Source: Bryobacterales bacterium
GTDB taxonomy: Bacteria > Acidobacteriota > Terriglobia > Bryobacterales > UBA6623
DNA: 64,000 nt
Direction: 5' to 3'
Assembly (NCBI GenBank): GCA_028819575.1
Contig: JAPPLB010000051.1
Span: 10,978-74,977 of the forward strand
The notes beneath the pieces were generated by a model, which saw nothing but the letters and a program-made list of their open reading frames with translations, searched no databases and was not told the origin of the DNA. Made by a program: the position numbers and the translations under genes. Below, piece by piece: positions 7,761 to 37,437 of this stretch (the stretch's first letter is position 1; every line of letters begins with the position of its first letter).

Positions 7761-7845
7761 AAGCTCTACAGTCTAACGGCACGAGGTTACATGACCCAGG
7801 GATAAGAAACCCTTGGCGCGGACTTCGAGTTGTAGGTCAACTGAT

Positions 7846-8808
7846 TTACTGGTCTTCCTTCCCATAGCGGTCCTGAAACTGATCCAATCGGTCGCGAGTC
7901 AGCTCGCCTCGATGCACAACCAATCGGTAGCGAAACTTCAACGACTCATCCGTGGGAATACGGGTTAAATGCCGTCCTGGATAAGCCGCGTTCTGCATGC
8001 TGCCGCTGGATCGCAGGATCCAGGACTGTGGAAAGCCGGGCGAGGAGGGGTGTGTCAGGACGGTGAGTCCACTGCCGGGTTTGGCGCCATAGGAGCCCGA
8101 GAAGTCCAGCCAGGGGCCGGCCCTGACGGATGTCACGCGTGGGGTGACGGGGCCGTTGTGTCCCAGGAAGCGAATGTCCTTCGGAAGGCGGATGCGTGTG
8201 GAGAATCCTCCATAACCTTTGACGTCCTCGGAGCCGCCGATGCGAACATCGTCTTCCAAAGCCGTCAGCTCGATCGTGAAGTCGATCTTGCGGATGTTGC
8301 CCTCTTGAGCGTGAGCACGGACTGTCGTGGTCTCCTCCACAAAGGGCTTCTGCTTACCTCTGTTGTCGAGCCAGCGGGGAGACTTCCAGTGCAGCTTGAC
8401 CCACACTGCGGCCGACTCCTTTTCGCGAGGAAGGATCTCACTGTCCTGAACTTCCCAGATCGAGTCCTCGTTGATCCACTGATCGCCCACTCGTTTGCCG
8501 TTTACGACGACCTGATGCCAGGCCCAGAAGATTCCTCGGTGGTGTCGATGGTCCTCGGGGAAATCTTCCGTCAGTACGTTGCCGTCGAGGTCATACAAGG
8601 GATGGATGTAGTTCGACCGCTTGTACTTCCCGTTAAGCGATTTTGCCGTTAGCTGATAGAAGAAAACCTTGTCCGGGCCTTCTCGAAAGAGATAGCCTTC
8701 GTCCTCCCTCACGATCGCCATGGACCCGGCCGTAACTGTGTCCGCGGCTGCGGAGACGGCCGGCAACAAGAAGAGGGTTAGCAAGACTGTGGCGTTGAAT
8801 CGTTGCAT
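7846..8808 (-). CDS. Secreted PmoA-like (DUF6807) family protein
   Basis: Only the C-terminal 320 aa of the 656-aa track ORF are plausible. The start is ATG 8808 (MQRFNATVLLTLFLLPAVSAAAD signal peptide). The family-like core is YIHPLYDLDGNVLTEDFPEDHRHHRGIFWAWHQV. The upstream part of the track ORF is antisense to the 8926..9669 gene. Confidence 0.7.
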   Translation of the reverse strand: MQRFNATVLLTLFLLPAVSAAADTVTAGSMAIVREDEGYLFREGPDKVFFYQLTAKSLNGKYKRSNYIHPLYDLDGNVLTEDFPEDHRHHRGIFWAWHQVVVNGKRVGDQWINEDSIWEVQDSEILPREKESAAVWVKLHWKSPRWLDNRGKQKPFVEETTTVRAHAQEGNIRKIDFTIELTALEDDVRIGGSEDVKGYGGFSTRIRLPKDIRFLGHNGPVTPRVTSVRAGPWLDFSGSYGAKPGSGLTVLTHPSSPGFPQSWILRSSGSMQNAAYPGRHLTRIPTDESLKFRYRLVVHRGELTRDRLDQFQDRYGKEDQ

Positions 8809-25325: not shown

Positions 25326-26816
25326 TCAGGAACGGGGAGATTCTCGGATCATGCGATCCAGGATATTCTTCGTGATGCGCTGCTGCTTGGGGTTCACGCC
25401 AAACGTCCCTGCCCGTCCTGAAGTCCGGGCGGGTATGTGCCCCGGGGGCTGTGACAGTCCCTCCGGCCACCAGATAGTCCCTGCATTGAAGACCCAGTTG
25501 CCCTTCGAACAGGGGTAGACAATCGCCCGATGCTGGCGGATTTCGTTCTGTGAGCTTCGTTGTGGATAGATGGGGCCGGACGCCACCACCTGCAGACCTT
25601 CGATGTCCGCCAAGGGAGGGCCGTGATATTCCCAGCCAATGACGGCGCGAATCATGTCTCCGGCCTCCAGATTGGTGCCCTCGTAAATCCAGTGCTTGGG
25701 TTGGGTGACGATCCAGTCGCCGTAGCCCGAGCCGTACGACGTGGAACCCATCAACTTCTCTTCATCCGCAAACAATTCCTTTCGGGCGAAGGCGCGGCAG
25801 GAAGCGTTGGTTACGGAACTGTCATAGAAAATGATTTCATGATAGACGGAATTTCCTGAAAAGAAGGCAAAGCTGAGACCGTCGTCGCGAGCTTTCCGAG
25901 CGGCATCGAACATGTCGCGGGACCAATATTCGTCATGACCCACGGATAGAAAGACCTTGCTTGTATCCAAAATCCTGGAATCCAATTGCAAGTCCAGGTT
26001 TGAACAGTAGGTCACGTCGTAACCCTGCTGCTCGAGCCAGTAGACCATGGGGTGTTCCCAGAGCAGGAACTCTCCGGATCCCGCTGAGAGCGGTGCGTCC
26101 ACCACTTGGCAATACTTGGCGTAGGGCCGATCGAAGCTTACCCGTACGTTCGGCCCGGTATACCAGACGTTGGGTGTGCCGTCGTCGTAGATCGAGTCAT
26201 TGCCGGGCCACTTGTTGTAGGCCTGCCAGGTGAGATCGCTTACCTGACAGAGCACGTCGGACCGGCGATGTTCCTTGACGACGAAAATGAGATAGCTCTG
26301 GAAACCGGCCGGCTCGTCCCGCGTCAGTTTTGCCAGATACACTCCGCTCGGCCAGTCTTTCGGAATGGCTAGTTGTGTGCAGCGTTCCCAGCGGCATTCA
26401 CGCAGCCGCTCCGTGGTCATCAGGGGAACGGCCTGAGGTTCGCTCTTGAATGGCCCCAGCCGTGCCATGTGGCGCCCGCCGGCGCCCCCGTAATATCCCA
26501 TTCTGTAGATATCGATCAATACGCGTCCCGGCGGGTCGAGACTGACCATGAAGTCGATGGTCTCCCCCTTCAGGACACTGGTCTTCGAAGCGTAACCTTC
26601 GATCGCTGAAGAACGGAGACGCCGGTTGAGCGGGTACGAGGCCAACGTCCTGGGGTCATCGAATCGGTGATATTGGAGTTGCCACTCGACGGTGCCGGGT
26701 CTGCGGTTCTCCTGCACAACGGGATTATCTTTCCCCTGTGCCGGCATCGTTGATCTGGATATCAGCGGCGCCGACGCCAAGCCCGCCATTGACTTCAGTA
26801 GGATGCGGCGTTTCAT
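25326..26816 (-). CDS. N,N-dimethylformamidase beta-subunit-like (DUF6605) family protein, exported
   Basis: Start revised to ATG 26816 (MKRRILLKSMAGLASAPLI leader). Family-like motifs include VGHDEYWSRDMFDAARKARDDGLSFAFFSGNSVYH. Confidence 0.65.
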   Translation of the reverse strand: MKRRILLKSMAGLASAPLISRSTMPAQGKDNPVVQENRRPGTVEWQLQYHRFDDPRTLASYPLNRRLRSSAIEGYASKTSVLKGETIDFMVSLDPPGRVLIDIYRMGYYGGAGGRHMARLGPFKSEPQAVPLMTTERLRECRWERCTQLAIPKDWPSGVYLAKLTRDEPAGFQSYLIFVVKEHRRSDVLCQVSDLTWQAYNKWPGNDSIYDDGTPNVWYTGPNVRVSFDRPYAKYCQVVDAPLSAGSGEFLLWEHPMVYWLEQQGYDVTYCSNLDLQLDSRILDTSKVFLSVGHDEYWSRDMFDAARKARDDGLSFAFFSGNSVYHEIIFYDSSVTNASCRAFARKELFADEEKLMGSTSYGSGYGDWIVTQPKHWIYEGTNLEAGDMIRAVIGWEYHGPPLADIEGLQVVASGPIYPQRSSQNEIRQHRAIVYPCSKGNWVFNAGTIWWPEGLSQPPGHIPARTSGRAGTFGVNPKQQRITKNILDRMIRESPRS

Positions 26817-27286
26817 ATGCTTCTTCCTCTCGGGAGTTGGTAGCGAACCTCTTTGGGATTTGCCTTGGCGTGAATGTCTTTGAATAGCGAAGAGTCGAGG
26901 TGTGATCCCGACGGCCGGCTCTGGGAGCGTGCTCTGGCTGTGGAACCTCGACAGGTGGTTCCTCATCCGGCCGATTCGACGGATGGCGGCATGGTCTCGA
27001 GGCTGGCGAGCGTCTGCTGCCAATGGTAGCAATGGAGTCGGTCAGGGTGTGAAGACTTGGGACTGCTGGCTGAAGCCGTTGAAGCTGTGGACGCAGGTCC
27101 ACTCATGAAGCGCGGTCTTGGTGACTCGTTCGGCTTTGCCGTTGTCCGTGAGTACCTGAAGGACGTATGTCCGGACTCGGCCAAAGTCGTCGACCGCAGC
27201 GGGAGAAAGGCTGTGGTCTTCTTGCCGGGGAGCAATCTTCCCGGTAGTCCCCATTAGCCATGGGCTTGCGACGTATTGCGTGAGGT

Positions 27287-27363
27287 TGGTGGGCGGTCCG
27301 AGACTCGAACTCGGGACCTCCTGCTTGTAAGGCAGGCGCTCTAACCAACTGAGCTAACCGCCC
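27287..27363 (-). tRNA. tRNA-Val (anticodon UAC), CCA encoded
   Basis: The reverse complement GGGCGGTTAGCTCAGTTGGTTAGAGCGCCTGCCTTACAAGCAGGAGGTCCCGAGTTCGAGTCTCGGACCGCCCACCA folds into a complete cloverleaf. The anticodon loop is CTTACAA. Confidence 0.92.
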
Positions 27364-27365
27364 TG
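27325..27365. repeat. attL core: 41-bp direct repeat (tRNA-Val nt 1-39 plus 2 nt upstream)
   Basis: TTGTAAGGCAGGCGCTCTAACCAACTGAGCTAACCGCCCTG is identical to 37397-37437. The flanking bases differ on both sides. Confidence 0.9.
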
Positions 27366-27419
27366 CTCTTTCCTTTCAACAACTTACACCCTTGTCTCAT
27401 GGTTCTAAATCGTGCAATT

Positions 27420-27468
27420 GTCAAGAAACTGTCAAGAATTTGCTCTAACTGGCCAGAGCCGTCAAGAA
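27420..27468. promoter_or_regulatory. Candidate arm-type integrase-binding repeats (GTCAAGAA x3)
   Basis: GTCAAGAA occurs at 27420, 27431 and 27461, with 11-bp spacing for the first two. Related GTCAAAA/GTAAAGAA motifs lie at 37254, 37262 and 37273 next to attR. On the minus strand they read TTCTTGAC(A), so they could alternatively be -35-like boxes. Confidence 0.3.
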
Positions 27469-28596
27469 ATGCGTGTCGTGCTCACCGGCCTGCCGGTCCA
27501 GCTTCGCAAGGGCCTCACGCATCATCGACAGATTTGCTTGGCTGTACCGCTTGAAAACCGCAGCGTCGGACTGCCGGAGCATTTGTGTCACGAAACGATC
27601 CGCAACACCACCAGCGCTCAAACGCGTTGCAAAGGTGTGTCGAAGCTCGTACAACGCGAAGTGCGGCAAGCCCGCCTTCTGCAATGCGCGATCCCACATC
27701 TTGCGAACAGTCGTCAAGGGCCTGCCCGTAGACGTGTTCGGAAACAGGAATTCGGAATCGAGACTCGCCCTCATCTGCGAAACGAACGCTTCGCGGGCGC
27801 GATCCGTCATCGGCATATCCGCTACTCCGGCCACAGTCTTTGAATCTGGTATGTGTATCAGTCGGTTGGCCAGATCAACCTGAGTCTTCCTCATCGGTAT
27901 CAACTCGCGATAGGGACGGAGCCCCGTTTCGCACATGATCGTGATGATGTTGCGAAGGTGTACAGGTGCAGCAGCTTCCAGTCGTTCCTGTTCCGATGCT
28001 GTCAGGACGTGCGGTTTGCGAGTCGTGCCGGACAGCTTCACGGGAAACTCAGCCCCGTTGCACGGGTTCACAAGCAGCCGCCGTTTCTTAACCGCTTGAT
28101 TCAGGATGTGTCTGAGAACACGAAACTCCTGATTCACCGTTGACGGTTTCAGCCGACTGCCCAGTCTGATGCCGAGACTCGTATGAACGCGCTTCCGGGT
28201 GTTCAGGCGGGTCCTCAAGTACACTTCTACATCGTCGGTTGTTATGTCTTGTAGTCTCTGCATACCGAATCGCGGTCTGAGGAACTTTAGGGCGTTCTCG
28301 TTCGCAGCGTGTGTTTTCGGGCTGCATGACGGCGGTTTGGATCGGTTCGCAAGGAACCAGTCCGCCCACTGGTTGAACGTGAGCAAGCCGCTCTGCTCAA
28401 CACCCGGCAGCCGACCCTCATCACGGTCCACCAATCGCCGACGCAACACCTTCTGCGCTTCGGCCTTGTCTCTCTGACCTGTCGATTCCTGTCTGTACCT
28501 CCCTTCATCGTCCCAGTAGCCCATCTGCCAAACGCTTGAATCTTTGCGTAGGTACAGGCTCCCGTTGTCGTTACGTGGTCTTCCAACTCTACTCAT
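27445..28596 (-). CDS. int: Tyrosine recombinase / phage integrase
   Basis: C-terminal catalytic motifs: GLRPYRELIPMRKTQVDL (Arg), LYELRHTFATRLS (H-x-x-R) and FKRYSQ (Tyr region). The N-terminal SAM-like domain is present. The ATG at 28596 overlaps the TGA of the upstream excisionase ORF (ATGA). Confidence 0.9.
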   Translation of the reverse strand: MSRVGRPRNDNGSLYLRKDSSVWQMGYWDDEGRYRQESTGQRDKAEAQKVLRRRLVDRDEGRLPGVEQSGLLTFNQWADWFLANRSKPPSCSPKTHAANENALKFLRPRFGMQRLQDITTDDVEVYLRTRLNTRKRVHTSLGIRLGSRLKPSTVNQEFRVLRHILNQAVKKRRLLVNPCNGAEFPVKLSGTTRKPHVLTASEQERLEAAAPVHLRNIITIMCETGLRPYRELIPMRKTQVDLANRLIHIPDSKTVAGVADMPMTDRAREAFVSQMRASLDSEFLFPNTSTGRPLTTVRKMWDRALQKAGLPHFALYELRHTFATRLSAGGVADRFVTQMLRQSDAAVFKRYSQANLSMMREALAKLDRQAGEHDTHFLTALAS

Positions 28597-28799
28597 TGTC
28601 TGATTCCTCCATCGACATGAAACTGTTTCAGCCACTCGGCCAGTTCCGACTGGCGGAACCGGATCGCGCGGCCCATCATGCGGTAGTGAGGAATCTGCTT
28701 TCGCTCAACATGAGCATACACCAACGACGGGGAGACGCACAGGTACCGCGCAGCAGTCTTGACGTTGATGAAGGGTTCGGGTGATGCTGTTACTGGCAT
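28593..28799 (-). CDS. Excisionase-type helix-turn-helix DNA-binding protein (AlpA/Xis-like)
   Basis: 68 aa. INVKTAARYLCVSPSLVYAHVERKQIPHYRMMGRAIRFRQSELAEWL matches the HTH_17/excisionase pattern. It appears translationally coupled to int. Confidence 0.75.
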   Translation of the reverse strand: MPVTASPEPFINVKTAARYLCVSPSLVYAHVERKQIPHYRMMGRAIRFRQSELAEWLKQFHVDGGIRQ

Positions 28800-29017
28800 T
28801 TCGGTCTATATCTATTATTCCCACTCCGGCTGTTAAGCATTCTCTACAAGGCGTTTTAACGTGCTTAAGCGGCGTTTCTGGTGGTAAGGCCCTTTTCCGT
28901 GCCGTTCGCCGCTTACGCGCCAGCTACGGGCGAGGTTTTAACGCATTTCGGGCGCTGGAAACAGAAAAACGGCAAACCGGATGCCCGATCTACCGTCTTT
29001 CAAAAAGAAACAAGATA

Positions 29018-29212
29018 TTAAGGCGTCTTTTTGGCTCCAATGAAACGCGGCGCTTTTCCTTCTGGTCCTTGCAGTACAAGGGACAGAATTGAGTCCGCTT
29101 GATCGTGGATCGATGTAGCCTCAAAGTCCTGGTGCCTGTTGGCCCTTGAAGTTTCCCAAACGTGTTTCAGAACAGCCCTAAAGTCGCGTACCTGTGATTC
29201 TTCTGGAAACAT
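29018..29212 (-). CDS. Small island-borne hypothetical protein
   Basis: 64-aa ORF preceded by a strong SD (AAGGAGAT, 9 nt upstream of the ATG). No recognisable domain. Confidence 0.45.
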   Translation of the reverse strand: MFPEESQVRDFRAVLKHVWETSRANRHQDFEATSIHDQADSILSLVLQGPEGKAPRFIGAKKTP

Positions 29213-29353
29213 GATTACTCTATCTCCTTCATTGCTATTATACCGACTCCGGTTATACTCCGTCCCTGTTTTTTAACCAACAGGCAACCCCAAGGTGGTG
29301 GACATAAACACGGTATCTGTAATGGGTACCGGGTTTTTCTGTGGCACGGATTA

Positions 29354-29381
29354 TTGACAACTCTCGGATTCTGTAGATAAT
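29354..29381 (+). promoter_or_regulatory. Near-consensus sigma70-type promoter candidate inside the ORF-poor island region
   Basis: TTGACA (29354-29359), a 16-nt spacer, then GATAAT (29376-29381). It points rightward toward the terminator at 29863-29899. Confidence 0.4.
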
Positions 29382-29862
29382 GATAATAGTTATCGCCGGT
29401 TTTCTGGCATAAGTCTTGCGTTGAGGGACTGCGGATCAGGGCGTAAGGCAGGCTGTGATACATAGGTGTACGGCGTATGTATCGACTGATGGGTAGTAAA
29501 GGGGTGACACCCGTACACACTTGGATCGAACGGGAGAGAGTGGTCACGCGAAGGTCGGTAACGCGATATAGTAGTCCCGCCCAATGCTCCGAACCGGCAA
29601 CGGGGAATGATACTAAGACTCATTCTACGATCAACCCTGGCGCGCTACGGCGCTACAGGGGAAGTCGATCTTTGAATGATACCCTATAGAAAGGCGAAAA
29701 CCCTGTACTATTGTTATGTCCCAGCTAATTCTTTACAGCGTTGCACCTTGTCAAGGATAACATCAGCGGTGGCCTGTTATATACGCCAGTACCAGTACTC
29801 AGCGTTTACGCTTTTGGAGTACGGTATAATGGAAACATACCCCACTACCAAGCAGTCCCAAG

Positions 29863-29899
29863 CACCCCGGTAATTCGATCTACCGGGGTGTTTTACTTT
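29863..29899 (+). terminator. Rho-independent terminator
   Basis: CACCCCGGTA-ATTCGATC-TACCGGGGTG is a perfect 10-bp stem, followed by TTTTACTTT. Confidence 0.65.
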
Positions 29900-30108
29900 G
29901 CGTGCTACTACCCGTACCGGCGCTTATATACTCGCTACTAGCCTAACGGCGCACTAGGCGGTAGCCGATGCGCCTGTATCTGTGGTAATACAATGCCACC
30001 CTATGAGGTTATATGGCATAATTAGAGCACAAACATAATCTGAAGCCATGGCAAGCGCCCATATATCAACTCGATACGTGGGCGCTTGTCTATTTGAGGT
30101 GCCAAGTC

Positions 30109-30136
30109 TTGACATTTATTGATTATCGTTTACACT
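30109..30136 (+). promoter_or_regulatory. Candidate promoter upstream of the head/packaging operon
   Basis: TTGACA (30109-30114), a 16-nt spacer, then TACACT (30131-30136). It lies between hairpins at 30052-30088 and 30159-30197. Confidence 0.3.
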
Positions 30137-30369
30137 AAGAATATCAGGGAACATAACGCCGGGTAGTGGTCTATTAACTTCTTTCCCCACTACCCGGTAA
30201 CAAGTTTTGGGAATGTAGGTTAGGTCCGCTATACCACGTAATTAGTCTGCGGTCTGGTCCCCGACAGGCTTCCTTCTTCCCATAGAAACCGGCGTATTGT
30301 ACGGCACAATGCGCCGGTCTCGTAATATGGCACCAAGAGAAACAGAACAGCTCCTGGGGACCGATAGGG

Positions 30370-31800
30370 GTGGGTAAATCAACTACGATGCATTTGAAGC
30401 CGTTTCAAAACAGGTTCATCAAGTCCAGTCTGAGACCTGGAATAGATACGGTTGTCTGTTCTCTGCCGCGTGGAAACGGCAAGAGTTTCCTAGCAGCACT
30501 ACTCGCAAAGCGCTCTATTGATCCTTCAGACAGTCTGTTTAGACCCGGTACCGAGTCGCTGCTATTCGCAGCGTCTCTGAACCAAGCACGTAGAACTGTC
30601 TACGCACAGCTACTCAGCATGGTGGACCATTCCAAGTACCGGATAGCCAACAGCGCGAACCATTGCCACATACTGCACACAGACACCAATACCAAACTGT
30701 CCGTTCTACCTTGCAATGCGAAAACCGCTCAGGGTTTGGGAGTCAACAACCCGTGTGTATTCGTAGACGAGCCCGGAGCTATGGAGACGCTAGCGGGTGA
30801 AATGCTGAACGATGCACTGACCACAGCGCAAGGGAAGCCCGGAGCGGATATGCGGGTTTGGTACTTCGGAACGCTCGCACCCAATCCTAGCCAATGGTGG
30901 GTAGACCTGGCGCTAGGCGGTTCCGATCCGAGTACCTACTGTTACACCCTACAAGCGAACCCTAAGCGATGGTCAGACCTGAGAGAGATTCGGCGTGTAA
31001 ACCCGTTGATGTACGCGTTTCCTGAGTCCAGAAAGACTCTCAAGAGCGAGCTAGACAAGGCACTATCAGATAGCCGTCTAGCCGCACGTTTCAAGTCGTA
31101 CCGATTAAACCTACCGACTGCCGAAGAGTCCACAATGCTATTGCAGGTGGAAGACTGGCAGCGCGTCTGCCAGCGCCGTGTCCCGCCGCGTGAGTCGCAA
31201 CCTGTTGTTGGTCTCGATTGCGGACAGGGCCGCGCATGGAGCAGTGCTGTAGCGGTCTATCCCAACGGACGTACAGAGTGTAGAGCTATCGCCCCTGGCG
31301 TTCCTGACATAGCCGTACAGGAGCGGAGAGACCGCGTATCTAGTGGCACGTATCAACGCCTGATTGATGTAGGTGTATTGCGGATCGCACACGGTAGGCG
31401 CGTTCCTTTGGTCTCCGATCTGGTAGAGCTAGCGGCAGATTGGAATCCTGCCGCGTTCATTGCGGATCATTTCAGGCTAAACGAGGTACGAGACGCTGCA
31501 CCCAGTAAACCGATTATCACGCGTCGTACCTTGTGGAGCGAAGCGAGCGAAGATATACGCGGATGCAGGCGGCTATGTCTTGATGGAAATATCAGCGTCT
31601 CAGACGAATCAAAGGGGCTACTACAGCATAGTCTAAGCGTTGCAAAGGTAGAGAACGACGACGCGGGAAACAGTCGATTAGTGAAAAAGAAACGGGATAA
31701 CAGTACCCGTGATGATGTAGCTTGCGCCTTTGTATTGGCAGCAGGTGTCATGAGTAGAGCTAGGGGACCGAAGCCGTTACGTTATGCAGTCGCACGCTAA
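30370..31800 (+). CDS. Phage terminase large subunit
   Basis: LKPFQNRFIKSSL followed by Walker A LPRGNGKSFLAALLA. An acidic Walker B/coupling region VFVDEPGAM is present, and the C-terminal nuclease-like part contains DDVACAF. The start is non-ATG per the track. Confidence 0.85.
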   Translation: MGKSTTMHLKPFQNRFIKSSLRPGIDTVVCSLPRGNGKSFLAALLAKRSIDPSDSLFRPGTESLLFAASLNQARRTVYAQLLSMVDHSKYRIANSANHCHILHTDTNTKLSVLPCNAKTAQGLGVNNPCVFVDEPGAMETLAGEMLNDALTTAQGKPGADMRVWYFGTLAPNPSQWWVDLALGGSDPSTYCYTLQANPKRWSDLREIRRVNPLMYAFPESRKTLKSELDKALSDSRLAARFKSYRLNLPTAEESTMLLQVEDWQRVCQRRVPPRESQPVVGLDCGQGRAWSSAVAVYPNGRTECRAIAPGVPDIAVQERRDRVSSGTYQRLIDVGVLRIAHGRRVPLVSDLVELAADWNPAAFIADHFRLNEVRDAAPSKPIITRRTLWSEASEDIRGCRRLCLDGNISVSDESKGLLQHSLSVAKVENDDAGNSRLVKKKRDNSTRDDVACAFVLAAGVMSRARGPKPLRYAVAR

Positions 31801-32065: not shown

Positions 32066-33308
32066 TAAAACTAAGCTGGAAGTCCGGCAGCGGGAAATTA
32101 GAGCCAAGTTAGCCGAACTAAGCAACATCGAAAGTCTAACAGACGAACAACGCACAGAAATGCAGACTCTAACAAAGGAGTCTATTGATAACGACGCAAA
32201 GCTAAATGCTCTTGCCGTCACCGAACAGGAACCACAGGAAACCACTACCGATGCTGAGTCTAACGAGATCAGGGAGCTACGAAAAAAGTCTAGAGTATCT
32301 AACTACGTCGTTGCCGCTAGCGAAATGCGGAGCGTTGACGGTGCGGAACGTGAGTTCAACGCGGCTCTAGGTCTTCAACCGGGAGCATTCCCTATGGAGT
32401 TGCTAGCACCGTCTGAAGACGAAATGCGAACGACTACCGATACGGATACCACGTCTAATCAGCGCCGCTGGATTGATCGTCTGTTTAGCGCGTCTATGGC
32501 GCGTCGTATGGGCGTTTCGTTCGAAAGCGTCCCTGTTGGTCAGGCCAGCTACCCAGTTACGACTGCGGGTGCTACAGGTGCGCAACGCGGGCGAGACGAA
32601 GCGGCTACCGCTGCGGCGTGGAGTGTTGGCGTTACGGAGCTAAAGCCTACCCGGAACACGGTACACCTATCATTCACTATCGAGGATGCTGCGCGTCTTC
32701 CTGGACTAGAGCAGTCACTTCAGCGCGATATGCGGTCCGCTCTAATGGACTCGATTGATACTTCGCTTTTCATTGGTGACAACGGCGCTAATGAGAATGG
32801 CGCGGATATCACAGGGTTTAAGACTGCAAGTATCACAGAGACCACTTTGACTCAAGCTAACAAAGTCAAGGCGGATAAGATCGTGGAAGCGTACGCGGCG
32901 TTCATTGATGGTAAACACTGCGAAGGGTTTAACGAAATGAACATCGTTGCTAGCGTGGGTTCGAACGCTCTATGGCTGTCTACGGTTCATAACAGCGCGG
33001 TTGATAACCAGACTATTGCTCAGTATATGCAAGCTAGCGGTATGTCCTGGATGACACGCGGCGGCATTGATAGTGCGACTGGAAATGGCAAATTCGGCGC
33101 TTATGTTGGTCTCGCTAGGGGAATACAAGGCGCTGCGGTTGCGGCGGTTTGGAGCAATGGTACTTTGATCCGCGACCCCTATACCGACGCTAACAAGGGC
33201 GCTGTTAAGGTTACACTAAACTATTTGTGGGACTTCGGCATTCCGCGTACTAGCAACTTTAAGCGTATTAAATACGTTAGCAAACCATGCCGGGAAACAA
33301 TCTATTAG
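32058..33308 (+). CDS. Phage major capsid protein, HK97-like with N-terminal coiled-coil (delta-like) region
   Basis: 416 aa. The N-terminus KTKLEVRQREIRAKLAELSNIESLTDEQRTEMQTLTKE is typical of HK97-family capsid proteins. A Gly/Ala-rich beta-rich body follows. Confidence 0.75.
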   Translation: MSNKTKLEVRQREIRAKLAELSNIESLTDEQRTEMQTLTKESIDNDAKLNALAVTEQEPQETTTDAESNEIRELRKKSRVSNYVVAASEMRSVDGAEREFNAALGLQPGAFPMELLAPSEDEMRTTTDTDTTSNQRRWIDRLFSASMARRMGVSFESVPVGQASYPVTTAGATGAQRGRDEAATAAAWSVGVTELKPTRNTVHLSFTIEDAARLPGLEQSLQRDMRSALMDSIDTSLFIGDNGANENGADITGFKTASITETTLTQANKVKADKIVEAYAAFIDGKHCEGFNEMNIVASVGSNALWLSTVHNSAVDNQTIAQYMQASGMSWMTRGGIDSATGNGKFGAYVGLARGIQGAAVAAVWSNGTLIRDPYTDANKGAVKVTLNYLWDFGIPRTSNFKRIKYVSKPCRETIY

Positions 33309-33754
33309 TTTCTGGACCCGCAGGCGGCGGCAAGTCGCAAGCTGTCCTGGAGCTATTAAACGAGTCCGACGAAGTAACAGCGGTGGCCGACTTCCAAAGT
33401 CTGTACGCCGCTGTTGCTCAGGTTTCACGCGATCCAGAAACCGGGAAGTACCCTCTGAGGGACGACCGGCTACTACCGCTAATCGAGTTTACCCGGCGCG
33501 GAATTATCCAATCGGCAAGACGGCGCGGCATTCGGGTAATTGCGACCAACTCTGATGGCAGCCCAGAACGGCGCGGCTACCTGTTGGAACTGTTAGGGCC
33601 GGACGCAGCAGAACGGATCGTTGATCCTGGTGAAGCGGTAGCAATCGCTCGCCTAGCGTCCGAAGACGGTACGTTAGAGCCTGCCTGTAGACAAGCACTC
33701 AACAGGTGGTACACGCGACATTACCGGGACAATCCACGGAGACCACGGAGATAG
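33287..33754 (+). CDS. Small P-loop NTPase embedded in the head module
   Basis: 155 aa with Walker A LLVSGPAGGGKSQAVLEL and a basic C-terminal tail (RHYRDNPRRPRR). It overlaps the capsid gene 3' end by 22 nt. Confidence 0.6.
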   Translation: MPGNNLLVSGPAGGGKSQAVLELLNESDEVTAVADFQSLYAAVAQVSRDPETGKYPLRDDRLLPLIEFTRRGIIQSARRRGIRVIATNSDGSPERRGYLLELLGPDAAERIVDPGEAVAIARLASEDGTLEPACRQALNRWYTRHYRDNPRRPRR

Positions 33755-35893: not shown

Positions 35894-36079
35894 TTATTCA
35901 GCCGGTCGCCACTCCACGGTCCTCTTGGGCCGAAACTGCTTCTCCAGCATTACATCGGCTATCTCGTAGGCGAGCTTTGCGACTCTAACGGGGTTAACCC
36001 CATCAGGGTGTTCTACCTTCAAGTCCATTGCGCTTAGCGCCTGACCAGCAAACCAGTCTCGTACACTTATTTTGTCCAT
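35894..36079 (-). CDS. Small island cargo hypothetical protein
   Basis: 61 aa with ATG start and an upstream AGGGGA. The WFAGQAL motif is common in small phage proteins. Confidence 0.45.
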   Translation of the reverse strand: MDKISVRDWFAGQALSAMDLKVEHPDGVNPVRVAKLAYEIADVMLEKQFRPKRTVEWRPAE

Positions 36080-36176
36080 CAGTTTCCCCTATCTCACTCA
36101 TCCCAACAGGTCTTCTACGGCTCATTCTCCATCTTGAGCACCAACGAACCTTTGATGAGTTTCAGAATGTATTATT

Positions 36177-36563
36177 TTACGGTCCTGAGGTAGAGTCACC
36201 GCAATCTCGCATGGCTCGGCATATGTCGCGAAGGGATTCTTTCACCCAGAATCGTACCCAAGCTATCGTCTCGCCGTCTCGAATTGTTACCTGTCGTATT
36301 TCAGCAGCCACGCCTTTCTCGGGACCGCTGTGATGCTGAATACTGAAAACATCACCTTCACAGCGATCCACTAGCTCAAGTCTCTCATTATCAGAGTATT
36401 GTGGTTTATCGCCTTTCGAAATGTTTTTTATCCACATCGCGGATTGTACAACCGTCACTAGCAGCCATCGTGGTGAAGCATCGCAGGGCTTTTTCTGTTG
36501 TGCAATGGAGAACGTTGGGGCGAGTAGCGACAAGTAGAGGGTCAATATCATGAATGGTCGCAT
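36177..36563 (-). CDS. Secreted island cargo hypothetical protein
   Basis: 128 aa with a perfect SD GGAGGA and signal peptide MRPFMILTLYLSLLAPTFSIAQQ. Confidence 0.6.
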   Translation of the reverse strand: MRPFMILTLYLSLLAPTFSIAQQKKPCDASPRWLLVTVVQSAMWIKNISKGDKPQYSDNERLELVDRCEGDVFSIQHHSGPEKGVAAEIRQVTIRDGETIAWVRFWVKESLRDICRAMRDCGDSTSGP

Positions 36564-36771
36564 GGCATTCCTCCGGGATGCGACAGATTGGAGTTGGGCT
36601 GTTTCACCCTACCATAGGTGTCAGAGCGGCCTTGAACGAGCTCATAGTCGCAGGCGCGATAGCGGTACCGGGAACGGCGCAACGTGGAACGACGGCTGGC
36701 CGGATTCGGAGTCGCCGAAGCGGCGTAGATCAGTGCCCGGGAGGCAGTCTTTGAAAATTGAAAGTCGGGTG

Positions 36772-37233
36772 TTATTTCATTTCTCCGCGATGTTCGACCA
36801 AAAGTCGTGCTGCATTCGTTTGCATCCATTGATGCAGCAATTCACTGTTGTACTGACCCACACCTAGCTTTGCCCCGGTAGTCTTGTCGAAGCGACGTAT
36901 AAAATCATTCCGTATACTTATCCGCACATTAGCTTGCTTGTCATGAGTCGCAGGGTGGATGTAGCCCTCCACAATTGCGTTCGCTTTGACGAAATCAACC
37001 GCCACTGGAGGGGGTCGTCTCCGTCCAATCCACCCCTTCAGGTCCGGCCATATTGTAGTTACCAGTAGAAACGATCCAAGCAAAAAAAGTACTACGTGAA
37101 TCCAGAGCGGATATGATGTCACCGCCATCCACCGTTTCCAGGTTTCGAAATTCTCGAGAATCTGTGGCAAGCTGATGAGTTGCAGCAAAATAGATGTACA
37201 AATTGCGAAAACCCGTCTCATTGACTGCACCAT
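36772..37233 (-). CDS. Membrane-anchored island cargo hypothetical protein
   Basis: Two N-terminal TM segments (VFAICTSILLQLISL and LWIHVVLFLLGSFLLVTTIW) and a soluble C-terminal domain. ATG lies at 37233; the track lists GTG at 37236. Confidence 0.55.
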   Translation of the reverse strand: MVQSMRRVFAICTSILLQLISLPQILENFETWKRWMAVTSYPLWIHVVLFLLGSFLLVTTIWPDLKGWIGRRRPPPVAVDFVKANAIVEGYIHPATHDKQANVRISIRNDFIRRFDKTTGAKLGVGQYNSELLHQWMQTNAARLLVEHRGEMK

Positions 37234-37396
37234 CACATCATCGCAGGTAAAACGTCAAAACGTAAAGAAACCGTCAAAATACTGCCGATAAAGTAGGGCA
37301 ATAGGGAGAAATGCGAGCGAAAGCAGACGCCCTAAAACCGCGTTAGTTGTTGTAAAACAAGGGTTTGGGTGTGAAGCATGTAAAGACACTCGGTTT

Positions 37397-37437
37397 TTGT
37401 AAGGCAGGCGCTCTAACCAACTGAGCTAACCGCCCTG
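37397..37437. repeat. attR core: tRNA-Val 5'-half fragment (41-bp direct repeat)
   Basis: Identical to 27325-27365. Only the 5' 39 nt of the tRNA are present, so this is not a functional tRNA. Confidence 0.9.

Follow-up and report, generated by a model that had tools for sequence, protein, structure and literature searches.

A satellite-like island and its gene-free stretch

The window, that is the whole 64-kb stretch of DNA analyzed here, contains a 10,072-bp island that is integrated at tRNA-Val and has a perfect 41-nt repeat at its ends as att sites. Searches with Pfam and PHROGs assign island genes to int, an HTH_17/AlpA-like xis, TerL, HNH, a capsid-like protein, an S78-like protease, a head-completion protein and a portal, so the encoded structural genes are those of head proteins only, and all head genes are open in the ORF listing. 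Three further small ORFs lie at the right end of the island (36177-37236). The same two resources reveal no rep/primase or initiator gene among the island ORFs and no cI-like repressor in the island. TerS is likewise without a match in 15 island ORFs, and in this sense the sequence-only reading of the region, which had reported no small terminase gene, was right. The cf-PICI gene set is thus present except for rep and TerS, and judged by its genes the island appears to be cf-PICI-like and head-only. Its TerL is ~25% identical to HK97-like coliphage terminases, the nearest among deposited phages, and belongs to a family that occurs in MAGs from at least six phyla or classes. A search of the genome contigs with the single TerL protein gave no match, and neither did searches of IMG/VR with the integrase or with the P1 28-mer.

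Between a leftward orf64-xis-int unit and TerL lies a gap, whose features are listed in Table 1. The orphan ORF at its left border, orf64, has a codon score of +0.086 (log-likelihood trained on the island's genes), and compared with X4, a second variant of the island from another sponge-metagenome study, it shows 2 substitutions only, by our own count both at third codon positions. The homologue search with orf64 returned only itself, and its AlphaFold model has a pLDDT of 61. At the right border, the GTG at 30370 had earlier been taken as the TerL start; the ATG at 30388, aligned with the N-termini of 13 homologues, is more likely.

Table 1. Features of the gap and its borders (window positions; activities are predictions)
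Feature	Position	Strand	Description
orf64	29018..29212	-	orphan ORF of 64 aa; heads the leftward unit; left border
Spacer	29213..29353		fast-evolving; leftward promoter candidates, small hairpin 29311-29331
Leftward promoter-like sites	29377->29350 and 29410->29383	-	from promoter scan
P1	29354..29381	+	sigma-70-like TTGACA-16-GATAAT; 11/12 positions; back to back with leftward candidates
Leader	29382..29710	+	island's left arm; kept in variant; not unusually structured
Solo IS630-family end	29711..29776	+	66 bp; terminal inverted repeat and last ~20 transposase codons, antisense
T1	29860..29899	+	putative intrinsic terminator; 13-bp stem, one G-U pair, then TTTTACTTT
Element A	29948..29979		hairpin GGCGCA...TGCGCC; at least 80% identical in X4
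H2	30050..30098	+	terminator-like hairpin, then TCTATTTG
P2	30109..30136	+	sigma-70-like TTGACA-16-TACACT; 10/12 positions; 279 nt upstream of TerL ATG
H3	30159..30197	+	in P2 leader; 11 perfect pairs, -22.2 kcal/mol
X4-kept block	30227..30318		92 bp; longest kept in X4's diverged right arm; 15 differences, no gap
Weak hairpin	30244..30270		inside X4-kept block
H4 / element B	30288..30318		hairpin, -21.6 kcal/mol
Motif AATATGGCACCAAGA	30322..30336	+	contains Box 1 core ATGGCACC at 30327-30334
TGGGGACC and GGGGTGGGTAAATC	30354..30379	+	by eye, weak counterparts of family G-runs and Box 3 (..TTCTGTGTAAC)
TerL	30388..31800	+	PHROG 9, E 2e-39; right border

Coding status of the gap

The gap (29213-30387) is non-coding and holds neither a credible gene nor a recognizable dead gene. 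The ORFs of at least 60 aa between orf64 and TerL (110, 77, 70, 65 and 66 aa) all lie within 29215-29941 and overlap one another, and the longest ORF within 29942-30369 has 53 aa, which agrees with the earlier statements that no convincing ORF exists between 29212 and TerL and none of 60 aa or more in 29942-30369. With a codon log-likelihood score that was trained on the island's own genes, each gene being left out when scored, all nine gap ORFs are negative (-0.02 to -0.11), compared with +0.03 to +0.13 for nine of ten left-out island genes and -0.01 for xis. The 110-aa minus-strand frame is, in addition, broken by single-base indels in the X4 variant. An ankyrin-like nature of the 70-aa ORF was considered and dismissed, its two database matches being to many-repeat proteins with four stretches each, which points to repeat inflation; Pfam ankyrin models do not match it.

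Protein similarity across frames, as expected of a decayed primase, repressor or TerS, was not detected. A Pfam scan of 34 of the 39 stop-to-stop frames of at least 25 aa in the gap gave nothing below E 0.01, none of 20 proteins of relatives (five primase/helicases among them) matched the gap (best E 0.25), and tblastx against 12 related loci, the kind of check that the sequence-only reading had proposed for such remnants, found the TerL N-terminus as sole match. At the DNA level, the gap has a GC content of 0.465-0.50, slightly under that of the island genes, and is largely unique. It matches only itself in its own genome, gives a best E of 9.3 against the 12 related loci and has no match in 80 further loci or in deposited phages; across 61 relatives and 77 family genomes, counts that each include the window's own genome, only the IS piece and one 27-bp match (E 0.004) were found.

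Predicted promoters, terminators and hairpins

By pattern, P1 and P2 match the definition of sigma-70-like promoters (-35 and -10 hexamers near consensus, 16-18 nt apart) and T1 that of an intrinsic terminator (a stem-loop rich in G+C with a U-run right behind it on the transcribed strand), the activity of the promoters in an acidobacterium being a pattern-based prediction. The near-consensus promoter, the strong terminator ~480 nt downstream and the second TTGACA box at 30109 of the sequence-only reading are all there, the latter forming P2 together with TACACT. T1 was missing from the automated terminator scan and was recognized from its stem (29860-29893; 12 of 13 pairs, -22.5 kcal/mol, z -5.4) and its T-run, which is present on the + strand only. 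Over 28500-31000 we observe 7 promoter-like sites, compared with 2.5 +/- 1.7 in shuffles, and the interval 29860-30318 holds 4 of the 17 hairpins with at least 10 pairs in the whole window.

The four further hairpins that had been pointed out lie at the positions given earlier or within a few bases of them, with energies from -17.2 kcal/mol (element A, 29948-29974) to -28.3 kcal/mol (H2 stem-loop, 30050-30090; z -6.5). Elements A and B are alike in sequence (A aligns with 30282-30345), and H3 and H4 are without clear T-runs in the window. As a whole, 29900-30369 is strongly folded (z -5.37 for the + strand, -3.73 for the - strand); since both strands fold well, the folds do not tell DNA-level from RNA-level roles of this region. 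The leader downstream of P1, which the earlier reading had singled out for folding along with the rest of 29380-29900, is unremarkable (29388-29711, z -1.17).

In a scan of 26500-31500 with Rfam 15 (E up to 1), tRNA-Val alone is above its gathering threshold. No Rfam family reaches one third of its gathering score in the gap, where the best sub-threshold score is that of Spot 42 (22.6 versus 80 bits), driven by the terminator. Scanned in the same way, the gap of a paralogous island in the same genome returns only mir-181, below threshold (20 versus 45.5 bits). A search for RNA runs that contain the sequence listed none.

The paralogous island and other relatives

In relatives of the island coding density is high and a primase/helicase of 550-770 aa is encoded (VapE, D5_N or Prim-Pol helicases); in one of them (L037) its gene lies between alpA and TerL, the same slot as the gap. 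The paralogous island likewise has a gap of ~1.1 kb without a gene, and its layout is the same as that of the island in the window: a small leftward ORF, the gap, TTGACA, two hairpins with T-runs, a shared motif and TerL. Its promoter-like sequence, TTGACA-16-AATAGT, lies 189 nt upstream of its TerL. Beyond the shared motif, the two gaps have no sequence similarity, and k-mer sharing is not enriched. The paralogous gap also contains clear iterons, a ~20-nt unit that is present three to four times at 7830-7915 of the paralogous locus (L028) and is followed by palindromes, and element-specific iterons are found at -290 to -130 from TerL in 4 of 76 relatives.

A positioned box upstream of TerL

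The motif shared with the paralogous island (15 of 16 bases in common, at near-equal distance from TerL) contains Box 1, ATGGC[AT]CC, which 18 of 85 related loci, spread over several phyla, have at -86 to -60 relative to the start of TerL. Over the segment from -550 to +30 of these loci, 18 of the 19 occurrences fall within -86 to -60, compared with 3 occurrences of the reverse complement. The window leader is not matched, at E up to 10, by a profile built from the leaders of 39 relatives, so homology of the window leader rests on the positioned 8-nt box and a weak resemblance. RNAalifold on 41 TerL-leader sequences, which answers the earlier call for a covariation test for this TerL-proximal part, yields 0 consensus pairs, and the missing consensus structure favors a DNA site.

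Several other readings of the segment were discarded. The family as a whole is not marked by strong hairpins before TerL, since 60 of 76 loci have none (12 have one, 3 have two and 1 has three), nor by a hairpin directly before Box 1, which occurs in 5 of 68 loci versus 4 in a control segment. Box 1 as part of a small ORF (Met-Ala-Pro...) would give 5-25 codons in varying frames, and most loci are without the ATG. In IMG/VR the 15-nt motif has at least 120 matches, and 0 of the 80 loci examined encode the TerL family, indicating chance matches. PHROGs found no TerS in six small ORFs near TerL in relatives.

Box 1 lies just upstream of the terminase and its conservation follows the terminase family, as one would look for in a cos/pac site. 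It is most likely a DNA site that the element itself reads, be it through the terminase (cos/pac) or in the control of the late operon. The cos site suggested by the sequence-only reading is thereby partly borne out: conserved cis elements do occupy the TerL-proximal end and fit packaging, and alternatively they fit late control.

An IS630-family end at an apparent mosaic junction

The 66 bp from 29711 onward carry the marks of one end of an IS630-family element: 68 of 69 bases are identical to the G005 copy of an element that is multi-copy in same-genus genomes, the terminus, fixed by alignment of copies, abuts a TA at 29709-29710, and a full copy encodes DDE_3 and HTH domains. This genome's assembly holds no transposase, second end or full copy of the element. 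The search for the other end gave a score of 24, versus 21.1 +/- 2.7 in shuffles, and because that end is absent, the piece is a scar, neither an element nor a MITE; a MITE with arms at 29713-29733 and 30137-30157 (71% complementary) is ruled out on the same ground.

The comparison with X4, made against contigs of four runs, of which the one with the variant has 9,687 bp, places a sharp change at this scar. Up to 29711 the variants are ~98% identical, and beyond it identity is <80% except in element A and in the block 30227-30318, which stops just short of Box 1; in the ~7 kb of coding sequence to the right of this block, this level of identity is reached in just three stretches of 34-50 bp. 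Evidently, the IS scar marks a joint at which island variants recombined. Within the left arm, 29213-29353 differs from X4 by 11 substitutions and 3 single-base indels in 141 bp, and 29354-29711 by at most 10 substitutions and no indel (48 differences in the whole piece, 38 of them listed further left). The X4 gap is, by our own arithmetic, of nearly the same length (~1.08 kb).

A probable patchwork control region and its alternatives

We give slightly better than even chances to the reading that the gap would be a patchwork non-coding control region, composed of a divergent early promoter, an IS scar, terminators and a late promoter whose leader contains hairpins. Its left ~500 bp would travel with int-xis-orf64 and carry back-to-back early promoters, P1 rightward and the candidates leftward, together with the ~330-nt leader. 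An IS630-family element would once have inserted at the TA of 29709-29710, leaving 66 bp of one end behind, and this TA would be the junction between a left arm near-identical to X4 and a right arm of <80% identity. T1 and the terminator-like H2 would close off rightward transcription, and P2 would drive a ~245-nt leader with H3, H4 and one weaker hairpin before TerL. Because this leader is full of hairpins, the head/packaging operon is probably held silent and opened only upon induction, the silencing probably being due to termination/attenuation or to a protein bound to the related palindromes A and B. The last ~65 nt would present the short box, at a fixed distance from TerL, to the terminase or to late control, and the control region may thus include a TerL-proximal cis site, probably for packaging. 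The activities named here, that is transcription, termination, packaging and binders, we infer from sequence patterns.

It is also conceivable, at a clearly lower probability, that the gap is mostly decayed DNA, the residue of a primase-helicase/origin module after IS activity and deletion, which would persist only for want of selection against it. The densely coding relatives with a primase/helicase in this very slot in L037, the IS scar in mid-gap, the slightly lowered GC content and the uniqueness of the gap, which bar the IS piece was not found in 76 other family genomes, are all consistent with decay. However, no remnant of any relative's protein was found, the variant keeps a gap of similar length with two conserved blocks, the paralogous island also retains ~1.1 kb, promoter-like sites and hairpins are much denser than chance, and all head genes are open. 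Of the decayed replication/regulation module proposed earlier, the slot, which matches that of the relatives' primase/helicase, stands, and a recognizable dead gene does not. We consider it improbable that the gap serves as a replication origin for an initiator supplied in trans by the helper or another element, and we rate this below the noncoding-RNA reading that follows. PICI/SaPI origins sit just after the rep gene, and the iterons of the paralogous island at the equivalent position and of 4 of 76 relatives would suit an origin. Yet the window gap is without iterons (a short repeat in at least three copies, as a rule next to an A+T-rich stretch): its best direct repeats are two-copy and 10-17 nt long, and only three 7-mers recur four times, mostly in hairpin arms. 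Nor are DnaA-box (2 versus 1.6 in shuffles) or IHF-like sites (1 versus 1.0) enriched, and no initiator gene was found among the island ORFs.

That the gap encodes one or more functional noncoding RNAs, acting like P4 RNA immunity and replacing a protein repressor by pairing with the late leader, seems to us quite unlikely. Candidates would be a transcript of ~510 nt from P1 to T1, or one of ~60 nt that starts behind the TATAAT at 29825-29830 and likewise ends at T1. A near-consensus promoter with a correctly oriented terminator, in an island without a detected cI-like repressor, would suit such an RNA, and 29354-29711 is better preserved in the variant than the flanking spacers. Furthermore, CCCCACTACC at 29840-29849 is repeated as the 3' arm of H3, so that 29837-29849 is complementary to the H3 5' arm at 11 of 13 positions, and, by our own reading, one G-U pair in H4 and one in T1 turn into mismatches on the opposite strand. 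Against this, chance would give ~0.7 direct repeats of 10 nt in 1.2 kb (our own estimate), the Rfam scan of the gap is empty, the leader fold is ordinary, and the paralogous gap shows nothing comparable. The ~500-nt promoter-to-terminator unit of the sequence-only reading proved to be a chimera: it holds the IS scar, its 3' 190 nt including T1 are <80% identical in the variant, and it is not conserved there as a unit. Least probable of all is a joint reading in which a satellite without repressor or replication gene would use an RNA switch, and Box 1 would serve for packaging in a large, undescribed family of head-only elements of ~10 kb that extends over several phyla. The RNA of the switch, made constitutively and with its end at T1, would be either the P1 transcript or one of ~60 nt from near 29837; it would pair through AUACCCCACUACC with the H3 5' arm and decide whether transcription from P2 passes through H3-H4 into TerL, a scheme that we regard as a long shot.

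Comparison with known systems

The patchwork control region that we favor sits in an island that resembles the cf-PICIs, whose prototype is the 15.4-kb EcCIEDL933 (bioRxiv 10.1101/2022.09.08.507074). As far as the accessible part of that source goes, both are small integrated islands that carry int, an alpA-like gene and genes for capsid, protease, portal, head completion, HNH and TerL but none for a tail, and both have a non-coding stretch between the early genes and the packaging/head operon. Within the same limits, our island differs in being without a detected rep/primase or TerS, in its gene order (TerL-HNH-capsid...portal), in its size of 10 kb, in its host, an uncultured acidobacterium, and in a TerL that shares no more than ~25% identity with the closest terminases of deposited phages; the cf-PICI features described there do not include a gene-free stretch of ~1.2 kb.

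HK97-like terminases cut cos just upstream of the terminase genes, with an HNH protein. The island shares with such cos regions the TerL type, the HNH partner and a conserved site in non-coding DNA just ahead of the terminase gene, whereas it has no TerS gene between the site and TerL and its HNH gene follows TerL; we know of no cohesive ends for this TerL family. Immunity of satellite P4 is based on an RNA factor, the CI RNA, and the island is similar in being a satellite without a classical repressor, with a promoter-proximal leader and terminators, but different in that Rfam gives no match, conserved seqA/B/C-type repeats are absent and the leader is an IS-scarred chimera. In lambda late control, a constitutive promoter is followed by a terminator that is read through by Q. 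Both islands of this genome have a sigma-70-like promoter and hairpin terminator(s) ahead of the head/packaging genes, although neither an antiterminator gene nor a binding element was identified and H3/H4 differ from terminators in their T-runs. A recent parallel is antitermination in the Bartonella gene transfer agent (bioRxiv 10.1101/2024.11.20.624540). As for the scar, its terminal sequence abuts a TA and is identical to the ends of elements with DDE_3 transposases in same-genus genomes, as in the IS630 family, but 66 bp of one end alone survive.

Significance

To our knowledge, phage satellites are known almost only from Proteobacteria and Firmicutes. Here, a satellite-like island is found in an uncultured acidobacterium, with a TerL family that extends across at least six phyla or classes, and the analysis strikes a candidate "new large RNA" from the list while locating where such elements have their control signals and, probably, their packaging signals. 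In this genome, two islands have apparently lost the replication gene and kept ~1.1 kb of putative signals. Box 1 provides a position-fixed motif that may be used to find and orient such elements and to test packaging.

The stretch before TerL holds no recognizable gene

The island measures 10,072 bp, and a 41-nt piece of tRNA-Val is repeated without mismatch at its two borders (27325-27365 and 37397-37437). It carries genes for an integrase and an HTH_17/AlpA-like excisionase, an orphan 64-aa ORF (orf64), and genes for TerL, an HNH endonuclease, a capsid-like protein, an S78-like protease, a head-completion protein and a portal, with no tail genes. In line with the sequence-only reading, no small-terminase gene was recognized in the island annotation, nor was any repressor or replication protein. 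Apart from the missing rep and TerS, the annotation agrees with an island resembling capsid-forming phage-inducible ones (cf-PICI). The island paralogous to it in the same genome, L028 (TerL 49% identical), shares a post-capsid protein of 153 to 155 aa that belongs to no family; no other unknown in the head module is as well conserved (33287-33754 and L028 12048-12509; 66% identical). Four ORFs at the right end (36177-37236 on the minus strand and 36028-36333 on the plus strand) have neither a Pfam/PHROG match nor a counterpart in L028, which carries two zinc-ribbon/NinG-like ORFs instead.

The gene-free stretch from the leftward orf64 to TerL (the gap) is real, as that reading had described it, except that alignment with 13 homologues places the TerL start at ATG 30388 and not at GTG 30370. 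The only ORFs in 29215-29941 overlap one another (65 to 110 aa), and from 29942 to TerL the longest has 53 aa. Codon log-likelihoods were trained on ten island genes, each gene being scored with itself left out: all nine gap ORFs are negative (−0.02 to −0.11 per codon), and nine of the ten island genes score +0.03 to +0.13, with xis at −0.01. A 70-aa gap ORF gave two matches in an exhaustive phmmer search, an ankyrin-repeat and a DUF5649-repeat protein with four stretches each, which we attribute to inflation by repeats, given that the ORF is hit by none of the ankyrin models. A 110-aa minus-strand ORF was ruled out by indels at 29258, 29268 and 29287 in X4, a variant island from another DNA run. 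The gap sequence is unique within its own genome.

We consider it unlikely that the gap is mostly decayed DNA, since no protein remnant was found: tblastx against 12 related loci, a check proposed earlier for pseudogene remnants spanning the region, matched only the TerL N-terminus, 20 proteins of relatives, including five primase/helicases, gave no match (best E 0.25), and Pfam gave none below E 0.01 on 34 of the 39 stop-to-stop gap frames.

With respect to orf64, its codon score is gene-like (+0.086), its changes in X4 are confined to third positions, and it adjoins putative divergent promoters. A homologue search of 5.8 billion proteins returned none, and AlphaFold models it, at low confidence, as a helix-loop-helix; orf64 may be the island's small regulator.

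Features of the left arm and the gap, with differences between X4 and the window
Feature	Coordinates	Length (bp)	Substitutions	Indels	Remark
int		1,191	7	0	
xis		207	2	0	
Spacer xis-orf64	28800-29017	218	14	1	fastest-changing left-arm part; flanking genes about 1% or less
orf64	29018-29212	195	2	0	both at third codon positions
Spacer	29213-29353	141	11	3	
P1 and leader	29354-29711	358	at most 10	0	upper bound: 48 differences in the piece minus 38 listed to its left
P1	29354-29381				TTGACA-16-GATAAT, 11/12 positions
T1 terminator	29860-29899				13-bp stem, −22.5 kcal/mol, z −5.4, then TTTTACTTT
Hairpin element A	29948-29979				kept in X4
H2 hairpin	30050-30098				TCTATTTG tail
P2	30109-30136				TTGACA-16-TACACT, 10/12 positions
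H3 hairpin	30159-30197
Weak hairpin	30244-30270
H4 hairpin (element B)	30288-30318
Motif AATATGGCACCAAGA	30322-30336				then TerL

An insertion-sequence scar at the joint of a mosaic

The region is present in four DNA runs that come from two studies and bear the label sponge metagenome. In X1 the island is a single 10,091-bp contig (27336-37426) whose depth, 56, is like that of its flanks (60 and 56), and X4, from the other study, has a 9,687-bp contig with the same ends. Across the four runs, contigs break at both att repeats, and around the left one (27181-27561) the tRNA-Val piece has a summed depth about 10 to 140 times the island's, as expected for a tRNA common to many genomes. Over 27336-29711, X4 differs from the window by 48 substitutions and four indels of one base each. 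Past 29711 its identity drops below the 80% limit; the exceptions are element A, 30227-30318 (92 bp, 15 differences; the longest conserved right-arm piece apart from the att end), three coding pieces of 34 to 50 bp and the final 137 bp.

Only 29707-29775 of the gap has matches in other genomes, being 94 to 99% identical to copies in three same-genus genomes (four in G005, six in G004, one in G001), with more distant matches elsewhere. In those genomes the sequence is the end of an element encoding a 359-aa DDE_3 plus HTH transposase, and its terminus lies directly after TA in all four aligned genomes (in the window at 29711, after TA 29709-29710). Since the match ends at 29776, with no other end present and no full copy in the assembly, 29711-29776 is a solo scar left by one IS630-family element. 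Because the X4 similarity breaks at 29711, the joint between the near-identical left arm and the diverged right arm is the insertion site itself. The promoter-to-terminator unit of about 500 nt proposed from sequence straddles this joint, and so it is not an old, conserved unit.

From the P1 −35 box onward, fewer changes have accumulated than in the spacers, which fits a promoter and leader that are in use. The leader itself (29388-29711) is not notably structured (z −1.17).

Promoters, terminators and hairpins

The promoters, the terminator and the density of hairpins that had been noted from sequence are all borne out. P1 and P2 are good promoter patterns, and 28500-31000 contains seven promoter-like sites, versus 2.5 ± 1.7 in shuffles. 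T1, which an automated scan did not list, is by its pattern a clear terminator and H2 a probable one, and there are three more strong hairpins. The 64-kb window has 17 hairpins of 10 or more pairs, and four of them sit in 29860-30318. Folding gave z scores of −5.37 (plus strand) and −3.73 (minus strand) for 29900-30369, and of −2.25 and −3.50, respectively, for 29380-29905, so the excess structure is real, though not strand-specific. Elements A and B, alike in pairwise alignment and the two gap blocks kept in the right arm of X4, are related, conserved palindromic elements around P2.

Strong hairpins are not a trait of the TerL family: within 550 bp of TerL the window island has four, and among 76 further loci 60 have none, 12 have one, three have two and one has three.

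A functional discrete RNA in the gap is quite improbable, and a candidate large RNA is not supported, given the unit's position across the joint and the z score of the P1 leader. Rfam, suggested earlier as a check, matched only tRNA-Val under permissive filters, the best other hit being Spot 42 on T1 (22.6 bits versus a threshold of 80).

The paralogous island and other relatives

In L028, too, some 1.1 kb ahead of TerL is free of genes. The two gaps have no alignable sequence in common except AATATGGCTCCAAGA, which lies at nearly the same distance from the TerL start in both, and their layouts run parallel: in L028 a strong hairpin is followed by TTGACA-16-AATAGT, by a pair of hairpins that have T-runs (−7.6 and −33.4 kcal/mol), and by the shared motif and TerL.

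More than 1,900 TerL relatives were found at E below 1e-20, the closest 68% identical. The annotated ones are densely coding and carry a 550- to 770-aa VapE, D5_N/DUF5906 or Prim-Pol/AAA_25 protein; at one locus (L037) the primase/helicase-type gene lies exactly between alpA and TerL. Such a protein is absent from both the window island and L028. Four IMG/VR contigs of 8.4 to 10 kb (L085, L087, L090 and L091) carry TerL, capsid and portal, with a primase/helicase in the two annotated ones (L085 and L087); their terminal direct repeats, 99 or 55 nt long, suggest complete circular assemblies of head-only elements.

That the gap is a replication origin is very improbable: it contains no iterons, and matches to the standard DnaA-box and IHF consensus motifs show no excess. 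Element-specific iterons and palindromes occur at −290 to −130 in four relatives, as in L028, whose own gene-free stretch has, at L028 7830-7960 (contig C33), three to four copies of an iteron of about 20 nt, GGTTGAAACTGGTTGATGCA, followed by palindromes rich in GATC/ATCGAT.

A position-fixed box before TerL

A profile scan of species-representative genomes yielded 80 further TerL loci, 41 to 53% identical, with titles from Alpha- and Gammaproteobacteria, Dehalococcoidia and other Chloroflexota, Vicinamibacterales, Bryobacterales, Longimicrobiales, Gemmatimonadota, Opitutales and Tectimicrobiota, several genomes having more than one. Across the −550 to +30 segments of the 85 loci whose upstream sequence reaches 550 bp or more, ATGGC[AT]CC (Box 1) occurs 19 times, 18 of them at −86 to −60 from the TerL start (window −61, L028 −64), and its reverse complement three times. 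Most other loci have GGGGACCCCTGCC or TGGGACCCTGCC in its place, then G-runs and a ..TTCTGTGTAAC box (Box 3) 5 to 25 nt ahead of the start codon. When the patterns were loosened, a Box-1-like word turned up in 69 of 90 loci, a Box-3-like word in 49 and the two together in 43. Hairpins directly preceding Box 1 are no more frequent than hairpins in a control segment (5 versus 4 of 68).

In L284 to L363 the leader (ATGGCACC or GGGGACCCCTGCC, G-runs, ..TTCTGTGTAAC) lies at −90 to −5, with MAG titles from at least six phyla or classes; several genomes have two to five such loci, and two are adjacent in one alphaproteobacterial contig. At L085 the 3′ end of an HNH gene contains the box. A conserved ORF was rejected, as frames and lengths differ and most loci lack an ATG there. 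A profile of 39 relatives' leaders did not detect the window's own, which therefore shares only the box at the right place and weak counterparts at 30354-30379. At another locus (L029, 8361-8431) the profile matched some 500 nt ahead of TerL (E 3.5e-5), an unassigned ORF lying in between, so the leader may mark the start of the late operon and not TerL itself.

RNAalifold, used as the covariation check and run on 41 of the 43 two-box loci, predicted not a single pair. As the leader tracks the terminase family across phyla and has no consensus RNA fold, we read it as a putative DNA site for the element's own proteins. Packaging is our first guess, prompted by the HK97-like TerL with its HNH partner and by the position of cos in HK97-like phages, and late-operon control our second. 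No description of the box was met in literature searches directed at cf-PICIs and at satellite antitermination.

A possible control-and-packaging region

We lean modestly towards a composite control-and-packaging role for the gap. P1 and a leftward promoter would form an early control region, and T1 and H2 would insulate the late operon. Either transcripts from P2 would be stopped or slowed at H3-H4, or a protein bound to elements A and B would hold P2, until a helper or small proteins of the island itself step in; the last ~65 nt before TerL would carry the terminase site.

A non-coding control or packaging region in a satellite is of a known kind, and the insertion-sequence scar is ordinary. 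New are the group to which the host belongs, the fact that two islands of one genome have lost the replication gene yet retain about 1.1 kb of signals, and a position-fixed box before TerL across phyla.
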